Below are positions 1-4,576 of a stretch of DNA of 5,656 bases, one piece after another. Position 1 is the first letter of the stretch. Every line of letters begins with the position of its first letter. The translations under genes and the position numbers were made by a program. The stretch comes from Escherichia coli. GTDB taxonomy: Bacteria; Pseudomonadota; Gammaproteobacteria; Enterobacterales; Enterobacteriaceae. The notes under the pieces were generated by a model that saw only the letters and a list, made by a program, of their open reading frames with translations, made no database searches and was not told where the DNA came from. The stretch lies in the NCBI RefSeq assembly GCF_003334765.1, contig NZ_QOWT01000063.1; one strand, written 5' to 3'.

Positions 1-42
1 GAGCGGTTTTTCAATTGCCTCAATGGCATCAGACGGATTCAT
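1..42 (-). CDS. Partial CDS (first 14 codons only, continues past the left edge); probable N-terminus of a YeeP/YkfA/YfjP-type island GTPase
   Basis: The minus-strand ATG at 42-40 reads MNPSDAIEAIEKPL and stays open to position 1. This matches my recollection of the N-terminus of the CP4-type prophage GTPase family. Its position after a cargo region also fits that island type. Only 42 nt are visible and the identity rests on memory. Confidence 0.45.
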   Translation of the reverse strand, partial: MNPSDAIEAIEKPL

Positions 43-58
43 ACATGTATTCCCGGTG

Positions 59-98
59 AAAAAAGACAAAACCCCGCGCACCGGAAAGGTGGCGGGGG
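59..98 (-). terminator. Rho-independent terminator downstream of the 387-aa ORF
   Basis: The minus strand reads CCCCGCCACC-TTTCC-GGTGCGCGGGG (plus 72-97). The stem is CCCCGC/GCGGGG plus CACC/GGTG with one bulged G. It is followed directly by TTTTGTCTTTTTT (plus 59-71). The hairpin starts 28 nt after the TAA stop at 128-126. Confidence 0.8.
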
Positions 99-125
99 AT
101 TCACGGAAATAATATCTGTCTGAAA

Positions 126-1277
126 TTATCTGGAATCGATTTGGCTGTTCTGCCTGGTTGCCACCAAATCATGGTACGCCTGCTCAATCATTTCATTCAG
201 CAGTTTTTTTGGGAGGACACCACGACTTCGGGCAATACTTTCAAGCTGTTTGTGGATTTTTCCGGACAGTTTCAGAGGGACGGAACCATCAGCACGTTCA
301 TCACGCCTTTTTTGTTGCTCCCGGGCACTTTTCAGCTCATCAAGAAGAATCGCTTTATGCTGAATCCTGGGGGCCTGGAAGGAGACCTGCGTAAACTTCG
401 CTCTGTTCCGTCTGGGATTACTTTCCAGTAAAAACTGTACCTGTTGCTCATTCCAGCCCTCCCAGTTATCAAACGTGGCGCAAGCAAACCAGTATTTCTG
501 CTCCGGGGTAAGGGGATTCAGCGGGGTTCCCACACACCGGACCTGCATGGCGTTCCATAACCAGTCACACTGTTCACTGTCCCTGCTGTCCACCCACGAA
601 AAGGGGGAGGGGTAATCATTGTTTATGCTGGCCCATTCAGAGAATACTGAGTTGATAATCGTCCTCGTAGCCTCTGGTCCGGATTTCAGCAGGTAACTGG
701 AGCAGAACCATATAATTTCACGGTAGATTTTATCCGGATGCACGGTGCGCATCGGCTTTTCTCTGGGACCGGCAATCTTCGGTTGCGATGGAAACCCCGT
801 GGCAAACCGCAGATGTTCCGGGGGCATTCCTGAACGTTTTTCAGGAATGGGTGTGAGTCCTGCGTTTCTGGTCTTTTCCGCTTGTCCGGTATTGCCTCCG
901 GCCGGAGTGTTGTCGGGAGTATCTTCCGGAGGCGAGGTGTTTTCATTAGTTGGGGGAACAACAGCAGAACTGTCCATCTCCGGAATGGGTTGAGGGGCAT
1001 AATCACTGTGGTAGCCAGGGGAAAGCGTTAAGTCCCGAAGGGTGACATCAGGTTCCGGGCAGTGAGTGCCACCGGGAGTGAACGGGAGTTGTTGCTTTTG
1101 GGAGAAAAATGTATTGTGAATGCGGGTATACAGCTGGAACAGAAAAAAATAAGATGCCCGTGGTTCTTTTTTTAACCACTGTGTATATTCCTCTATGGCA
1201 CCGAGCTGTTGTTTGTGCCGTTTTACAGCATCGATATACGGACAGCTGGTGCAGATATCATCCAGTTCCTTTCCCAC
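126..1277 (-). CDS. Hypothetical modular protein (383 aa from GTG 1277; 387 aa if GTG 1289), with a C-terminal ribbon-helix-helix-like motif
   Basis: This 1164-nt open frame is by far the longest in the window. There is no ATG in the first 104 codons. GTG at 1277-1275 is preceded by GAGGTG (1287-1282), and stop codons lie in frame upstream of 1289. The translation shows an N-terminal ~70 aa with CTSC, then a Pro/Thr/Asn/Glu/Gly-rich low-complexity stretch (about aa 95-185, nt 734-1007). A Trp-rich segment follows (8 W between about aa 194 and 280), then a basic stretch QQKRRDERAD. The end reads VPLKLSGKIHKQLESIARSRGVLPKKLLNEMIEQAYHDL, which has a strand-helix-helix pattern. I recognise no family. 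Confidence 0.8.
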   Translation of the reverse strand: MGKELDDICTSCPYIDAVKRHKQQLGAIEEYTQWLKKEPRASYFFLFQLYTRIHNTFFSQKQQLPFTPGGTHCPEPDVTLRDLTLSPGYHSDYAPQPIPEMDSSAVVPPTNENTSPPEDTPDNTPAGGNTGQAEKTRNAGLTPIPEKRSGMPPEHLRFATGFPSQPKIAGPREKPMRTVHPDKIYREIIWFCSSYLLKSGPEATRTIINSVFSEWASINNDYPSPFSWVDSRDSEQCDWLWNAMQVRCVGTPLNPLTPEQKYWFACATFDNWEGWNEQQVQFLLESNPRRNRAKFTQVSFQAPRIQHKAILLDELKSAREQQKRRDERADGSVPLKLSGKIHKQLESIARSRGVLPKKLLNEMIEQAYHDLVATRQNSQIDSR

Positions 1278-1311
1278 AATACACCTCACCTGCTTTTCTC
1301 ACATTTGCAGA

Positions 1312-1354
1312 TTTTAAAAAAGCAAACAAAAACCTCCGTACATGATGTACAGAA
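1312..1354 (-). promoter_or_regulatory. Palindrome GTACAT-N-ATGTAC with a downstream T-tract: a weak intrinsic terminator/attenuator or an operator in the leader of the 387-aa ORF
   Basis: The minus strand reads TTCTGTAC-ATCAT-GTACGGAG (plus 1334-1354), an 8 bp stem including 2 G-U pairs. It is followed by GTTTTTGTTTGCTTTTTT (plus 1333-1316). The core GTACATGATGTAC (1339-1351) is a perfect 6+6 palindrome. It ends about 35-45 nt upstream of the GTG starts, which leaves no room for a separate promoter. Confidence 0.35.
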
Positions 1355-1388
1355 CAATCTACCAGGTAGTGGCGTCAGAAAACCTCCG
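1329..1388. repeat. 10-bp direct repeat AAAACCTCCG, two copies exactly 50 bp apart
   Basis: Copies lie at 1329-1338 and 1379-1388 (minus strand CGGAGGTTTT). The first copy forms the 3' arm of the palindrome/terminator-like hairpin. Similarity does not extend beyond about 11 nt. Confidence 0.6.
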
Positions 1389-1663
1389 GGCCGCCTGCAC
1401 TTTCCGGAATGCGCCGGTTATGAAAAACCGGAAATTCAGTCTCTGTTGTAAGATGTACCCTCTGATACTACGTTTTCTCTGTGTATTTAACTCACTGTAT
1501 TTATTGTCTTTTTAAGCTTGACTGATATTCTCCGGTCATAGTGTGCCGGATACACATCCCGTAAACTTCTCATTTTTATATAAAAATACCTGCACTCTCT
1601 TCAGCGCATCTGTCTCCTTTAAGTAAAAAATGTTTTTACGTATTGCTGTAAATTCATTTTAAA

Positions 1664-1966
1664 TCAGTATATTACCTTGATATTGCTGTCTCCTGGTTTG
1701 ATGCGTAATCGTTCTGCCTTTCTGGATGATTCTGGTGCTTCCGGGTGCATTCTCCTCTGCACATGCAACAGTTCGTCATCGCCACGCTCCCAAAAAGCAT
1801 ATAAAAACGAATCGAATTTGATATTTTTTTCAATCGTTTTTCATAGGAATTTCGTAGGGTATTCTCCGCTATAACCTCCATATTTGCTGTCTTTTTCTTC
1901 ATAAATCGTATGCAATGTAGCCTGTCTGTCAAGACCTCTTCTCTGCTGTTGAGGAGACGATCTCAT
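1664..1966 (-). pseudogene. Possible small gene or pseudogene; reading frame ambiguous (101-codon frame with one internal TGA, overlapping the 86-codon open frame 1672-1932)
   Basis: The frame from ATG 1966 reads MRSSPQQQRRGLDRQATLHTIYEEKDSKYGGYSGEYPTKFL, then TGA at 1843-1841. It continues KTIEKNIKFDSFLYAFWERGDDELLHVQRRMHPEAPESSRKAERLRIKPGDSNIKVIY, with a stop at 1666-1664. This frame is protein-like and has a higher first-position G content than the alternative. The ORF-track frame (TTG 1932, first ATG 1902) has no stop but gives a Cys-rich, odd peptide. I recognise no homology for either frame. Confidence 0.3.
1905..1932 (-). promoter_or_regulatory. Sigma70-like promoter candidate firing leftward
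   Basis: The minus strand reads TTGACA (1932-1927), a 16-nt spacer, then TACGAT (1910-1905). The -35 is perfect and the -10 matches 4 of 6. The predicted start is near 1897. The element lies inside the interrupted ORF, so it may be fortuitous. Confidence 0.35.
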
Positions 1967-2407
1967 TTTTGGTCTTTTCCGGGAGAGAGGCTGTCAGATG
2001 AGCGAGCCGGATATACTGTCAGAGGTACACCCCGTAGCAGACCTGTGCTCCCATTTCCGCGATCCGGAACCAACAACACCCTACGGTTAATACCATTTGA
2101 AGCGTCAGGTACTGCAGGAAGTTCCCCCCTGCGCGGACATCGGTTCCTGCCGACATCTCACAATACGGCCAGACTGTCATGCAGTAACACCCGCATGCGG
2201 TCTGCGGTTTTAAGCGCACTCTCCCGTTTTCAGTGCACCGATAATGCGTCATAGTAAGTCTGGGGGAAGTTACGGAATGCCTGTTAAGTGGTGCCGTGGG
2301 TGGAGACAGCTTACTTTTCTACAGCAACTGCAGTCATTCAGGATGATCAGGAGATATTCTGTCAATGTCACGATCCTGCCATTTTCGTACCCGCTAAGAT
2401 ACTTCCG

Positions 2408-2566
2408 TTACTGATGCTGTCCGCTTTTCACCATTTCATCCTCACTGACAGGCGTTGCGTTTTGGGTCATCACCACAGCTTTACGTTTCTCTTTTAACCG
2501 GTAACGCTCTCCTTTGATATTCAGCGTGGTTGAGTGATGCAGCAGTCAATCCAGGAGCGCTGTTGT
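2408..2566 (-). pseudogene. istB: C-terminal fragment of the IS21-family helper ATPase IstB, carrying an in-frame nonsense codon
   Basis: The minus-strand translation is TTALLD*LLHHSTTLNIKGERYRLKEKRKAVVMTQNATPVSEDEMVKSGQHQ*. It contains the IstB C-terminal signature LDRLLHH...I.G.SYRLK.K. TGA at 2548-2546 sits where the Arg codon should be. The stop TAA is at 2410-2408. About 200 N-terminal codons are missing. Confidence 0.75.
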
Positions 2567-2871
2567 CCGGCAACCACCATATCAACTTCTTCCCGGGTGT
2601 GGCGGAGAGGTGGTATCCTGGCTGAGTTTCGAAGCGAACCGTTCTTTTTGACGGGCGCATTTTACGTCCGGGCTGAATGTAGTAACGCGGCATGGAACGT
2701 CGGCCCGTATACCATTGCCTTAATCTCCGCAAAGATAACCTCGTCATTCCGGACATTCTCTGCCAGGCATATGTCGATGTAATCCATAAACGATTTCAGC
2801 TTACCCCTTTTGTTGTGGCCAGTCTTTCTGGCTGGCGGTTCAGGGGATGTTTTCTGGTTATCGTGTACCAC
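2560..2871 (-). pseudogene. istA: N-terminal fragment of the IS21-family transposase IstA (IS100-like), with two frameshifts and truncated by deletion
   Basis: Three successive minus-strand frames give recognisable IstA sequence. The first reads SPEPPARKTGHNKRGKLKSFMDYIDICLAENVRNDEVIFAEIKAMVYGP (to 2701). The second reads RSMPRYYIQPGRKMRPSKRTVRFETQPGYHLS (2699-2604). The third reads HTREEVDMVVAGQQ (2601-2560). These are collinear with about aa 40-140 of IS100 IstA as I remember it (YPEPPARKTRHKMVKLKPFMDYIDMRLAENVWNSEVIFAEIKAMGYTGGRSMLRYYIQPKRKMRPSKRTVRFETQPGYQLQHDWGEVEVEVAGQ). Upstream of 2871 the HTH region is too degraded to read. Confidence 0.8.
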
Positions 2872-3590
2872 AAAGCAGGGATATTGCCCCGATAGTCACA
2901 TTTCAGATTGATCGCGGTCTGAAGATGTGGCACTGAGGTAACGTGCTGGTGTCACTGGTATTGCTGAAGTTATGGTTTTTCGGGGTCAGGTGAGCCTGTT
3001 GTGTGTATGCTTTTTGTTCAGGTCAGAGGGGGACTGTGTGGACAGCGGCTTTTGTCTCCGGGCATTCACGCCTGAACGATGAATGCGATTTTCAGCAATA
3101 TTTGTCTTTGTGACACTCTCTGGTTGAGAAGCTAATGCGCGCCCCTGTTTCCACAGAGAATGAGGCTTGCCATCAGCCGAAACATCAGTATTCCACGCCA
3201 TACAGACGGCGCCTGACCATGTGCTGATGCAGGTAAAATGTTTCACTACAACTGTTCGGGTTGCTATGCAACGAAACAGCGATTCTCACGATCTTTAACT
3301 GCAACGTTTTTCCGCCTGAAAGCTGACTGCCTCCTGCTGAGGTGGGAGGCTATGATTCAGTGCGTTTATAGTCTCCGGGGTATGCATGTACCGGAGCATA
3401 CCATTTCTGGTGGATAACAAGCCGGCACATTCAGACTGCAGTGAAGATGGAGGCACCTGGTTGTGAAGAACGTTTCTGCCCGTGGCTGCTTCGCATCATC
3501 AATGGTATTCATACCCGCTCAGAAATGACCGGGTGCTGAAGCCCTCCGTTATCGCGCAGTATAATGACGTATATGATCTGTGGACGAGTG

Positions 3591-3615
3591 AGCGGCGTGC
3601 CTGATGTACGCCGCT
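3591..3615. other. GC-rich hairpin (8-bp stem); possible plus-strand terminator or RNA-stability element
   Basis: AGCGGCGT (3591-3598) pairs with ACGCCGCT (3608-3615) around a 9-nt loop. On the plus strand it is followed by ATTACTGTATTTTA, which is only moderately U-rich. There is no U-tract on the minus strand. Confidence 0.3.
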
Positions 3616-3629
3616 ATTACTGTATTTTA

Positions 3630-3663
3630 CCACAGGGCTGGTTTTCTGCTGCCAGCCCTGTGG
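3630..3663 (-). terminator. Perfect 12-bp hairpin 10 nt after the stop of the 200-aa ORF; likely transcript end or stabiliser, but it lacks a canonical U-tract
   Basis: CCACAGGGCTGG (3630-3641) pairs with CCAGCCCTGTGG (3652-3663) around a 10-nt loop. On the minus strand it is followed by TAAAATACAGTAATA, which is A/U-rich but not a T-run. Confidence 0.45.
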
Positions 3664-3673
3664 TTCTCAGACA

Positions 3674-4276
3674 TCAACTGTGAGCGGCATCAACCGATGT
3701 ACGGTATGCCATAAGCACGTACTGATCCATCAGATTTGTCAGTGGTTCACTCTGACCCTGACGTGCAATGATCCATTGCTCCAGATCTTTTTCTGATTTG
3801 TGTTTCAGGTTTTTCGTCCAGTCGTCAAGGCTGTTTCCGGTCATTAAGTCAAGCCAGCAGAGCCAGACCAGTTTGAGACGTAACTCCGTGCCGCCAAACT
3901 GACGGAAGAGGCTGATCAGTTTGTTTGCCAGAGAATGTTGCTTCAGGCGCTCACATTCAGACAGCAGGATCCCTTCCAGCATCGGATGATGAACCAGCAG
4001 GTGTTCGCTGGTGCATAAATTCACCACCAGATCATCATCCAGGGACGGGGAGCTCCGTTTGTCCGGACCATAAATCAGCCGGTGCAGACTCTGGGGAACG
4101 ATGGCAATCTCCGGTTTTTCGCCATTGAATGACACCCACCCGGGCGTCAGATTATGGAAATAGTAGATATTCGGATGACACACGCCCCATGATACGGCGT
4201 GCCGGGTGAAGCCGGTCAGCCATTTCTGGTAGTTTTCATGGAGCAGCTCGTAACGGGTCTGATACTGTTGTTTCAT
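3674..4276 (-). CDS. Hypothetical protein (200 aa), co-oriented with and downstream of the AlpA-family gene
   Basis: The open frame is 618 nt. The GTG at 4291 and the ATG at 4282 sit on or too close to the SD. GAGGAA (4289-4284) lies 7 nt upstream of the ATG at 4276, giving MKQQYQTRYELLHENYQKW.... The stop TGA is at 3676-3674. By position I expected a YagK/YfjJ (inovirus Gp2-like) protein. The sequence lacks the HYH-type motif I associate with that family, so I leave it unassigned. Confidence 0.8.
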   Translation of the reverse strand: MKQQYQTRYELLHENYQKWLTGFTRHAVSWGVCHPNIYYFHNLTPGWVSFNGEKPEIAIVPQSLHRLIYGPDKRSSPSLDDDLVVNLCTSEHLLVHHPMLEGILLSECERLKQHSLANKLISLFRQFGGTELRLKLVWLCWLDLMTGNSLDDWTKNLKHKSEKDLEQWIIARQGQSEPLTNLMDQYVLMAYRTSVDAAHS

Positions 4277-4304
4277 TTTCATATTCCTCACGGGGGATAA
4301 CAGG

Positions 4305-4344
4305 CAGCAGAGCGCCGCCGGCAGGCCGGAGATTGCGTCTGCTG
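4305..4344 (-). other. GC-rich intercistronic hairpin between the AlpA-family gene and the 200-aa ORF
   Basis: CAGCAGA (4305-4311) pairs with TCTGCTG (4338-4344). The stem encloses a GC-rich 26-nt segment with an internal CCGG-cagg-CCGG stem. No T-tract follows on the minus strand, so it is not a canonical terminator. Confidence 0.4.
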
Positions 4345-4369
4345 TGGGCGAAGGGTTAGTGGTTAAAAA

Positions 4370-4576
4370 TTACAGACGGGACTGTGCAATACGCGCCTGC
4401 AGCCAGGCTTCCACTTCACTTTTCAGCCAGCGGGAGCTGCGCCCCATTTTGATGGGCGCAGGAAAGCCCCCATCTTTGATGAGTTTGTCAAACCACTTAT
4501 CGGTTAGGCCGGTCAGTTGAGTGATAAACGCCATGTCGACCATCTGGTCATCCATCAGCGAAACTGGGGTAGCCAT
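4370..4576 (-). CDS. alpA: AlpA-family (phage/island) transcriptional regulator, 68 aa
   Basis: The translation is MATPVSLMDDQMVDMAFITQLTGLTDKWFDKLIKDGGFPAPIKMGRSSRWLKSEVEAWLQARIAQSRL. It fits the AlpA/Phage_AlpA pattern: an HTH, then G.FP.PIK.G, then W...E.E.W. GGAGGAA (4590-4584) lies 7 nt upstream of the ATG at 4576. The ORF track's 135-aa version starts at a GTG with no SD and adds a non-family extension. The stop TAA is at 4372-4370. Confidence 0.9.
   Translation of the reverse strand: MATPVSLMDDQMVDMAFITQLTGLTDKWFDKLIKDGGFPAPIKMGRSSRWLKSEVEAWLQARIAQSRL

Follow-up and report, generated by a model that had tools for sequence, protein, structure and literature searches.

Tandem tryptophan-rich units and a ribbon-helix-helix C-terminus in a hypothetical backbone protein of CP4-type islands of Escherichia coli

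Introduction

Ribbon-helix-helix (RHH) domains act as dimers that set a two-stranded antiparallel sheet into the major groove of DNA. The CopG, ORF56 and Mnt/Arc repressors and the families RHH_1 (PF01402) and RepB-RCR_reg (PF10723; IncFII CopB-like) share the strand-helix-helix order, and the CopG-type repressors, 45–90 amino acids (aa) in length, are essentially the RHH alone. TraY, TraM, MobC/BfmA, ParG and omega are encoded by mobile elements; these RHH proteins bind tandem repeats adjacent to the genes under their control. The RHH antitoxins of type II toxin-antitoxin (TA) systems (ParD/CopG/MazE-like) are small and co-transcribed with a toxin, and MatP binds matS via a four-helix bundle plus an RHH (PMC6538776). 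Here we describe a gene for a hypothetical 383-aa protein, hereafter the focal gene, in a 5,656-nt stretch of Escherichia coli DNA (assembly GCF_003334765.1, contig NZ_QOWT01000063.1; ‘the window’) that belongs to a CP4-type island.

The C-terminal ~50 residues of the focal protein resemble these repressors, and dimeric major-groove binding at repeated sites near its own promoter is a likely common mode with the CopG type. Unlike those repressors, the focal protein carries its RHH as the last fifth of the chain, behind two unrelated Trp-rich units and a disordered insertion. The relaxosome and partition proteins show no significant sequence match to it and its N-terminal architecture is unrelated to theirs, although the family matches BfmA and TraM weakly and has 11-bp-spaced upstream repeats in several clades; no relaxase, partition ATPase or identified origin adjoins the focal gene. 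The TA antitoxins differ from it in size and in setting, since its 3′ neighbor is a GTPase gene behind a terminator-like hairpin.

CP4-type islands (integrase, AlpA, YfjJ/Gp2-like, GTPase, RadC, and CbtA/CbeA) belong to the accessory elements most often met in E. coli and related bacteria, and carry virulence genes (for example, for an Ag43-type autotransporter) as well as anti-phage defence cargo. The candidate operator motif described below provides a testable handle on the regulation of these islands. A recent preprint independently proposes that, in a widespread class of islands with defence cargo, the core functions are integrase, AlpA, RadC, and a protein like inovirus Gp2 (10.1101/2024.08.29.610337). 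We put at about one half the probability that the focal protein is an island-specific, dimeric, probably autoregulatory RHH DNA-binding transcription regulator.

Results and discussion

Tandem Trp-rich units in the focal protein

The focal protein was modelled with AlphaFold2 from an alignment of 109 sequences (A2), giving a predicted local distance difference test (pLDDT) score of 79 and a predicted template modelling score of 0.72; an earlier model from ten sequences (pLDDT 57) was unusable and was superseded. Parts of the protein are numbered here as in the 387-aa form of the open reading frame (ORF). Confidence was mostly above 90 for residues 17–66 and 185–386, whereas residues 82–145 were predicted to be disordered (pLDDT <50).

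The family consensus contains the same series of motifs twice (FxWLxxxxxxCxWxWxY, ERYxxIxxxFDxW, and KxxxLxxxKxxW), and hhalign aligned unit 1 (aa 28–62 plus 185–226) to unit 2 (aa 227–335) over 70 columns with a probability of 98.9% and E=3.1e-17. From the doubled motif series and this alignment, the protein is a tandem duplication of one new, predicted Trp-rich helical unit, followed by the C-terminal RHH, and as recognised in the alignments the unit defines a new repeat domain family. The first part of unit 1 aligned to the unit 2 helix FSWxDxxxxQCxWLW, and the hairpin of residues 185–226 is equivalent to the ERYxxIxxFFD...KxxxLxxLKxxW portion of the unit. Unit 2, with the motifs PSPFSW..QCxWLW..RCxGxP..ATFDNWxGW..NPxR, is the best-conserved region of the protein and is 90–97% identical among the E. 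coli paralogues.

The disordered insertion that splits unit 1 (residues 67–184) was found in Enterobacterales clades only, where its length and sequence vary and it is unconserved in the alignment; family members of ~300 aa do not have it. Among the E. coli paralogues its ratio of nonsynonymous to synonymous substitution rates (dN/dS) was 0.64–0.80 at 52–57% aa identity, that is, nearly neutral.

A preliminary description of this DNA, made from the letters alone, had seen a modular protein with a Pro/Thr/Asn/Glu/Gly-rich, presumably disordered stretch and eight Trp in ~90 residues. All of this was correct: P, T, N, E, G, and S make up 55% of residues 67–184, the low pLDDT values fall within that stretch, and W194, W219, W232, W243, W245, W267, W276, and W279 are eight Trp in 86 residues. 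Its division into an N-terminal domain, a linker, and a Trp domain has to be replaced, as hhalign shows a Trp unit that is duplicated and whose first copy contains the ‘linker’ as an insertion. This duplication with an insertion also disposes of the scenario in which the frame is a fusion of two decayed genes, and the homologues were colinear and full length across genera. The N-terminal CTSC sequence pointed out in the same description is present as a CxxC at residues 13–16, but its conservation is limited to the E. coli clade. We rejected it as a metal site, given that restriction, its location in a low-confidence region of the model, and the presence of just two Cys.

A CopG/ORF56-type RHH at the C-terminus

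The basic stretch and RHH-like motif proposed earlier for the C-terminus were confirmed by profile matches and by superposition of the predicted fold on RHH domains, so that the RHH three-dimensional fold is present in the model. When the RHH-only family profile was searched against PDB sequences, the best matches were ORF56B (E=0.0033), ORF56 (0.0078), CopG (0.0088), and Mnt (0.1). Among the 109 family members, the Pfam matches were to RepB-RCR_reg (22), RHH_1 (10), MatP_C (3), and RHH_3 (2). Taken together, the sequence profiles and the predicted fold identify the C-terminus as a CopG/ORF56-type RHH. Since this RHH is preceded by a basic helix, DNA binding is a reasonable inference, and we hold it with more confidence than the regulatory role. 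By analogy with known RHH domains, the protein would dimerise through its RHH.

Comparison with MatP

The possibility exists that the focal protein is a mobile-element homologue of MatP, in which the Trp units would be four-helix bundles that, together with the RHH, bind 13-bp palindromes and bridge or organise island DNA or disturb the host MatP/MukBEF. The best PDB sequence match of the full family profile was indeed MatP (E=0.0019), over unit 2 plus the RHH, and hhalign gave probabilities of 89–92% (E=7e-7 to 2.5e-6) for this region against MatP alignments. Unit 2 alone against the MatP N-terminus (residues 1–62) gave P=2–5e-4, with an observed score of 21.7 against at most 13.5 in 50 column-shuffled controls, and the focal RHH against the MatP RHH gave P=1.2e-6. 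The two proteins share the order of a WxWxYL helix, a helical bundle, a basic helix, an RHH, and a long C-terminal helix, and a 13-bp 6-1-6 palindrome lies upstream of the focal gene.

Other searches pointed away from MatP. In the HMMER comparison with E. coli MatP nearly all of the score came from the RHH half, MatP residues 1–80 contributing only 3 bits; the unit 2 profile searched alone against PDB sequences had no detectable relative, MatP included; ORF56, CopG, and Mnt ranked above MatP with the RHH-only profile; and structure searches did not single MatP out. The MatP_C family (PF17414) was matched weakly, by three of the 109 members with a best value of 0.01, and PF06303 was not among their recurrent Pfam matches. 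Thus the arrangement looks MatP-like, and the alignments are suggestive of a relationship; a putative homology of the bundle to MatP was downgraded after the unbiased sub-profile searches. On balance, we regard a mobile-element MatP homologue as rather improbable.

Membership of the MatP family itself was rejected on biological grounds. That family is defined by a single conserved chromosomal gene whose product binds matS in Ter, in the Dam/SeqA/MukBEF clade; the focal gene is carried by islands as an accessory gene (36% of E. coli genomes), is present in one to three copies, and evolves fast, its product being 24–31% identical between lineages. By comparison, MatP was at least 76% identical across ~80 enterobacterial species in a genome scan seeded with Photorhabdus MatP. 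Owing to this conservation the MatP alignment had an effective number of sequences of only 1.8 even after the scan, and a MatP protein search and a metagenome scan returned near-identical E. coli sequences only. A further difference is that the Trp-rich unit of the focal protein is duplicated; both families are confined to Gammaproteobacteria and both have a WxWxYL first helix.

Among the sequences collected in these searches was a MatP variant of 197 aa, P0232, in which residues ~38–84 (the bundle helices and the basic helix) are duplicated in tandem. Its source is a single NCBI contig; the duplication could be natural or an artefact of assembly.

Sequence motifs upstream of the family genes

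Upstream regions of the family genes were otherwise unalignable between lineages, apart from short motifs. When the 8192 strand-collapsed 7-mers were ranked by how widely they were shared upstream, ACGTAGT was the sole non-A/T-rich word among the top 15. It occurred in six of 12 loci, representing five independent lineages, and seven of its 12 occurrences in 184 kb fell within 300 bp upstream of a family gene, where 0.23 would be expected. In the three most distant loci, the longer form TACGTAGTRAT was found just upstream of the gene, the Vibrio form being a 10-bp palindrome, ACTACGTAGT. Since the family gene is the only gene that adjoins an ACGTAGT/CTACG-type motif in all contexts, autoregulation is the simplest reading, and this motif is the candidate operator of the focal protein.

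In four non-E. coli lineages, the related word CTAYGWWTTT was directly repeated two to four times, with a spacing of 11 bp, 110–155 bp upstream of the gene; of its 11 occurrences in 163 kb, ten were within the 300-bp upstream windows (0.2 expected). The Citrobacter orthologue at L002 (L numbers designate loci) carried 11-bp CTACGNATTT repeats at −155 to −112. The repeats were absent from the E. coli clade. They are iteron-like, lie in the intergenic region between alpA and the family gene, and were located at L002 9846–9889, L004 9846–9889, L005 9834–9870, and L010 9284–9305.

Repeats of this kind raise the question of whether the protein controls copy number or serves as an accessory factor for the island-encoded YfjJ/‘inovirus Gp2’-type nickase, its RHH binding iteron-like repeats at an oriV or oriT. 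Its counterparts would then be CopG/CopB (rolling-circle, IncFII) or TraY/TraM/MobC, and it would control or assist the replication or mobilisation of the island after excision instead of being a general transcription factor. Within the E. coli clade, however, the yfjJ-like gene lies several kb away and the repeats are missing; no nick site or origin was identified in the loci, and the matches to replication and mobilisation RHH proteins were sub-threshold and may reflect the generic RHH fold. We consider a nickase accessory unlikely, though the likeliest of the alternatives to a regulator.

The preliminary description had also singled out a palindrome at 1339–1351. The perfect 13-bp palindrome GTACATgATGTAC is real, although its position was one base off (Table 1). 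It was conserved in L013, had one mismatch in L011, and was absent from L014; simple arithmetic gives ~1.4 perfect 6-1-6 palindromes per 5.6 kb by chance. It may be a clade-specific operator candidate. As a conserved operator it was not supported, in view of that chance frequency, its loss in L014, its absence from other clades, and the presence of one further copy only, with two mismatches. That copy, GTGCCTGATGTAC, lies at window positions 3597–3609 just 3′ of the gene for a 200-aa protein and keeps the ATGTAC half-site. On the gene strand, the palindrome can also be read as a weak hairpin with a T-run (terminator-like call at 1334–1354, minus strand).

Proposed role of the focal protein and points that weigh against it

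If the focal protein is a regulator, the two tandem Trp-rich helical units would form a novel helical body, interrupted by the disordered insertion in the E. coli-type clade, which would carry the basic helix and the C-terminal CopG/ORF56-type RHH. The RHH would pair with that of a second subunit and put its two-stranded sheet into the major groove, recognising ACGTAGT/CTACG-type sites upstream of its own gene. The protein would thereby act where the alpA/YfjJ arm of the CP4-type island backbone meets the GTPase arm.

Several observations weigh against this proposal. The focal protein alone passes no curated RHH model (its relatives and the profile do, mostly below gathering thresholds), and a Foldseek search of the predicted structure gave nothing significant. 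The monomer model has no DSSP strand at the expected RHH strand position, which is usual for an RHH without its dimer partner. The strand residues vary across the family, and its members need not therefore share a single operator core. ACGTAGT occurs once in the window and is missing from two of the four E. coli-clade loci, the motif definition and analyses were partly post hoc, and no sigma-70-like promoter was detected upstream of the focal gene. Among the E. coli paralogues dN/dS of the gene was 0.50–0.73, only moderately below 1. Finally, neither the protein nor its accession was mentioned in any paper found.

Start codon, occurrence, and family

The frame is an intact ORF at 126..1289 on the minus strand, 387 aa when counted from the GTG at 1289; no other ORF between the left end of the window and the alpA-like gene comes near it in length. 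In the same frame, the Prokaryotic Genome Annotation Pipeline (PGAP)/RefSeq start is the GTG at 1277, giving 383 aa (WP_000514100.1, ‘hypothetical protein’). The GTG at 1277 is the better start on sequence grounds because it aligns with the ATG start of a diverged paralogue in L014 and has a Shine-Dalgarno-like GAGGTG 5 nt upstream. As stated in the preliminary description, the frame has no ATG for 104 codons, the first internal Met being residue 105.

The focal protein had no match in Pfam, NCBIfam, PADLOC, PHROGs, or PDB sequences, in agreement with the earlier statement that it belongs to no recognised family, as far as curated families are concerned; at E<=1, no PADLOC-DB defence model was matched, and the PHROGs matches were noise only. 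Calling it an ‘orphan’ went too far. A word-indexed protein search returned E. coli variants (72–98% identity) and five relatives at ~30%, from Citrobacter and Cronobacter among others. An alignment of these sequences served as profile A1, with which 1.84 billion cluster representatives were searched exhaustively. This search found at least 150 proteins at E<=1e-3 (clusters counted at 50% identity) across Enterobacterales, Vibrio, and Marinobacterium, and 46 of these reached E<=1e-10. The named hosts are Escherichia, Citrobacter, Klebsiella, Serratia, Yersinia, Hafnia, Cronobacter, Vibrio, and Marinobacterium, and all members are annotated as hypothetical. Many members are 290–330 aa long and match the Trp-rich core plus the C-terminus. 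Scanning species-representative genomes with A1-derived patterns gave no confirmed relative. As judged from these searches, this is a real gammaproteobacterial family that is uncurated and has no name. A common ‘hypothetical’ backbone gene without a Pfam family is now annotated as encoding an RHH-type protein that probably binds DNA.

At a coverage of at least 80%, the ORF was found in 1964 of 5426 complete E. coli genomes (~36%), in one to three copies each, almost always on the chromosome and always as ‘hypothetical protein’. Plasmids accounted for three records, and none was found in phage genomes. The whole 5.6-kb window was at least 80% covered in 1732 of the 5426 genomes and is E. coli chromosomal island DNA.

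A functionless, decaying island remnant whose frame is kept by hitch-hiking would fit the dN/dS values, the nearly neutral linker, the 2.4 kb of pseudogene debris around the gene, and the lack of a detected promoter. However, about a third of the complete E. coli genomes, as counted above, have the frame intact and at full length, homologues remain intact and colinear down to 15–30% identity across genera with motifs kept in three separate blocks, and the predicted fold is confident; we consider such a remnant most improbable.

Divergence of the focal gene relative to its neighbors

Between lineages, the focal protein was 24–31% identical, compared with 52–71% for the GTPase and 52–87% for AlpA; the 200-aa protein encoded next to alpA was 56–90% identical, except in the L010 lineage (27–30%). 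In these comparisons, the focal gene is generally the most diverged of the backbone block. Fast divergence is a pattern of specificity or ‘immunity-type’ regulators in related co-resident elements. The Trp unit might thus be a new DNA- or partner-binding fold and the protein an ‘immunity-type’ specificity determinant of the integrase/AlpA/YfjJ (Gp2-like) defence-carrying islands, a tentative idea to which we attach a low probability. If it is true, co-evolution of the RHH and an ACGTAGT operator would allow several related islands to share a genome without cross-talk, and excision, replication, or mobilisation would be gated through the YfjJ-type nickase arm. A bolder extension of this idea would be that MatP was recruited from the mobile-element family described here.

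Position of the focal gene in the island

Gene neighborhoods were recovered for 13 family members. The preliminary description had placed the focal gene in a variable cargo slot, between an alpA module and a GTPase gene. The flanks were right (Pfam Phage_AlpA, PGAP), a YeeP-like GTPase gene entering the window at its left edge with its first 42 nt, while the slot was not, as the gene keeps a fixed backbone position in each lineage examined. It was directly 5′ of the GTPase gene at eight loci from six protein lineages (with Escherichia, Citrobacter, Cronobacter, and Klebsiella/Serratia among the hosts). As to whether the gene always has these neighbors, a question raised in that description, the YeeP-like GTPase gene adjoined it throughout the Enterobacterales loci with the sole break in L013, but not in distant lineages: in Vibrio diazotrophicus and at L178 the family gene lies between an integrase gene and a divergent YfjJ-like gene. 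As judged from these loci, the focal gene is a fixed but fast-evolving island backbone gene.

The loci of the Citrobacter koseri, Cronobacter, Klebsiella/Serratia, and C. freundii types have the order cargo, YfjJ/‘inovirus Gp2’-like gene, 197-aa gene, alpA, gap, and family gene, with a divergent gap of 500–650 bp between alpA and the family gene in non-E. coli Enterobacterales loci. On the 3′ side, there follow a gene for a 291-aa GTPase and then WYL-like, DUF932, ArdB, RadC, CbeA/CbtA, and DUF4942 genes. Identifiable cargo (Gabija-like OLD plus UvrD, type I restriction-modification, and TIR) lies beyond alpA and differs between islands. In the E. coli clade, the module of alpA and the 200-aa gene is co-directional with the focal gene, with 1.5–2.4 kb of debris in between.

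Could the gene nevertheless be variable cargo in the slot that holds rnlAB in CP4-57, acting against phages as an effector or sensor, or serving a TA pair as its antitoxin or regulator? The conserved position, with the identifiable defence cargo elsewhere in the same islands, argues against this, as do the absence of PADLOC and PHROG matches, of a toxin-family gene adjacent in any of the 13 loci, and of the family from phage genomes, together with its near absence from plasmids. We regard cargo of this kind as very unlikely. The ‘DNA-binding effector or autoregulated sensor’ suggested earlier retains its DNA binding, a reasonable inference, but not the effector or sensor part, as nothing in the PADLOC and PHROGs searches points to a defence effector or sensor. 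On present evidence, the focal gene is neither a new defence system nor a categorically new system.

K-12 islands presumably do not carry the focal gene, going by the gene order given in the preliminary description.

The leader of the GTPase gene

The spacer between the focal gene and the GTPase gene is 84 nt long and constitutes a conserved leader. Its fold z-score was −3.8, and five of its pairs were maintained through double changes across eight loci. A 17-nt box, TTTCAGACAGATATTAT, was invariant and occurred once per island, and the U-run lay ~25 nt before the GTPase ATG. Rfam had no match in the window, leader included. The leader may be an attenuator, a terminator, or a protein-binding site. 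Since a conserved hairpin and U-run follow the focal gene, this gene is probably transcribed separately from the GTPase gene, as far as the sequence indicates. We rejected the box as an operator of the focal gene, as it stays with the GTPase gene across a 3.9-kb insert in L013.

The leader was located at L002 11145–11241, L005 11133–11229, L008 10987–11083, L010 10615–10723, L011 9141–9233, and L014 6614–6711, and its nucleotides were conserved even where the GTPase proteins were just 52–60% identical.

Table 1. Positions in the window of the focal gene, the parts of its product, and the features around it
Feature	Position	Strand	Description
Leader of the GTPase gene	40..125	-	17-nt box at 109–125; GC-rich hairpin at 72–98; U-run at 59–71; GTPase ATG at 40–42
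Focal coding sequence	126..1277	-	383 aa; stop codon TAA at 126–128; from PGAP, alignment with the paralogue, and full-length colinear homologues
Basic helix, RHH, and long C-terminal helix (predicted)	129..353	-	basic helix LLDELKSAREQQKRRDER; strand VPLKLS; helices KIHKQLESIARSRG and PKKLLNEMIEQAY...
Unit 2 (predicted)	354..611	-	aa 227–312; Trp-rich, helical; invariant columns; pLDDT >90
Unit 1, second part (predicted)	612..737	-	aa 185–226; helical hairpin; pLDDT 86–96
Disordered insertion (predicted)	738..1091	-	aa 67–184; rich in Pro/Thr/Gly/Glu; splits unit 1; insert in hhalign
Unit 1, first part (predicted)	1092..1208	-	aa 28–66; helices with WLKKxxRAxxFFLFxL; invariant columns of A1; pLDDT 91–97
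Perfect 6-1-6 palindrome	1338..1350		13 bp; 60–73 nt upstream of the GTG at 1277
ACGTAGT, single copy	1467..1473	-	~190 nt upstream of the start; candidate operator half-site
AlpA-family gene	4370..4576	-	68 aa; Pfam Phage_AlpA, PGAP; upstream backbone partner

Other genes and rearrangements in the islands

Between the focal gene and the 200-aa gene, the window interval of ~1290–3673 (2.4 kb) contains no long ORF; PGAP annotates fragments of an AAA-ATPase and of a frameshifted hypothetical pseudogene there (~2408–2841). This interval is the true decayed cargo slot of the island.

The 200-aa gene itself (3674–4291, minus strand) encodes a protein of 200–205 aa that follows alpA in all Enterobacterales-type islands examined. 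It had no match in Pfam, NCBIfam, PADLOC, or PHROG and is an uncharacterised backbone gene. The module that it forms with alpA (window positions 3674–4576) is divergent from the family gene in L002, L004, L005, L008, and L010 and co-directional with it in the E. coli clade, which implies an inversion or another rearrangement of the left backbone arm. The gene that diverges from alpA in the E. coli clade is instead the yfjJ-like one.

In the fifteen best-scoring genome matches (H1–H15), the window aligned in two pieces with IS100 (istA/istB) between them. At L013 (9119–13048), in one E. coli lineage, an IS-containing insert of ~3.9 kb with an IstB fragment and genes for an EamA transporter and a TetR protein separates the focal and GTPase genes; as both are present, they are separable without the loss of either. 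At L001 (8463–12042; strain VTB96933v), the GTPase gene is split by an ISCro1/IS66-family insertion, and the arm beyond the insertion contains dynamin-family, RdcB-family, and patatin-like genes. In L011–L014, the GTPase gene is followed by a gene for an Ag43-type autotransporter.

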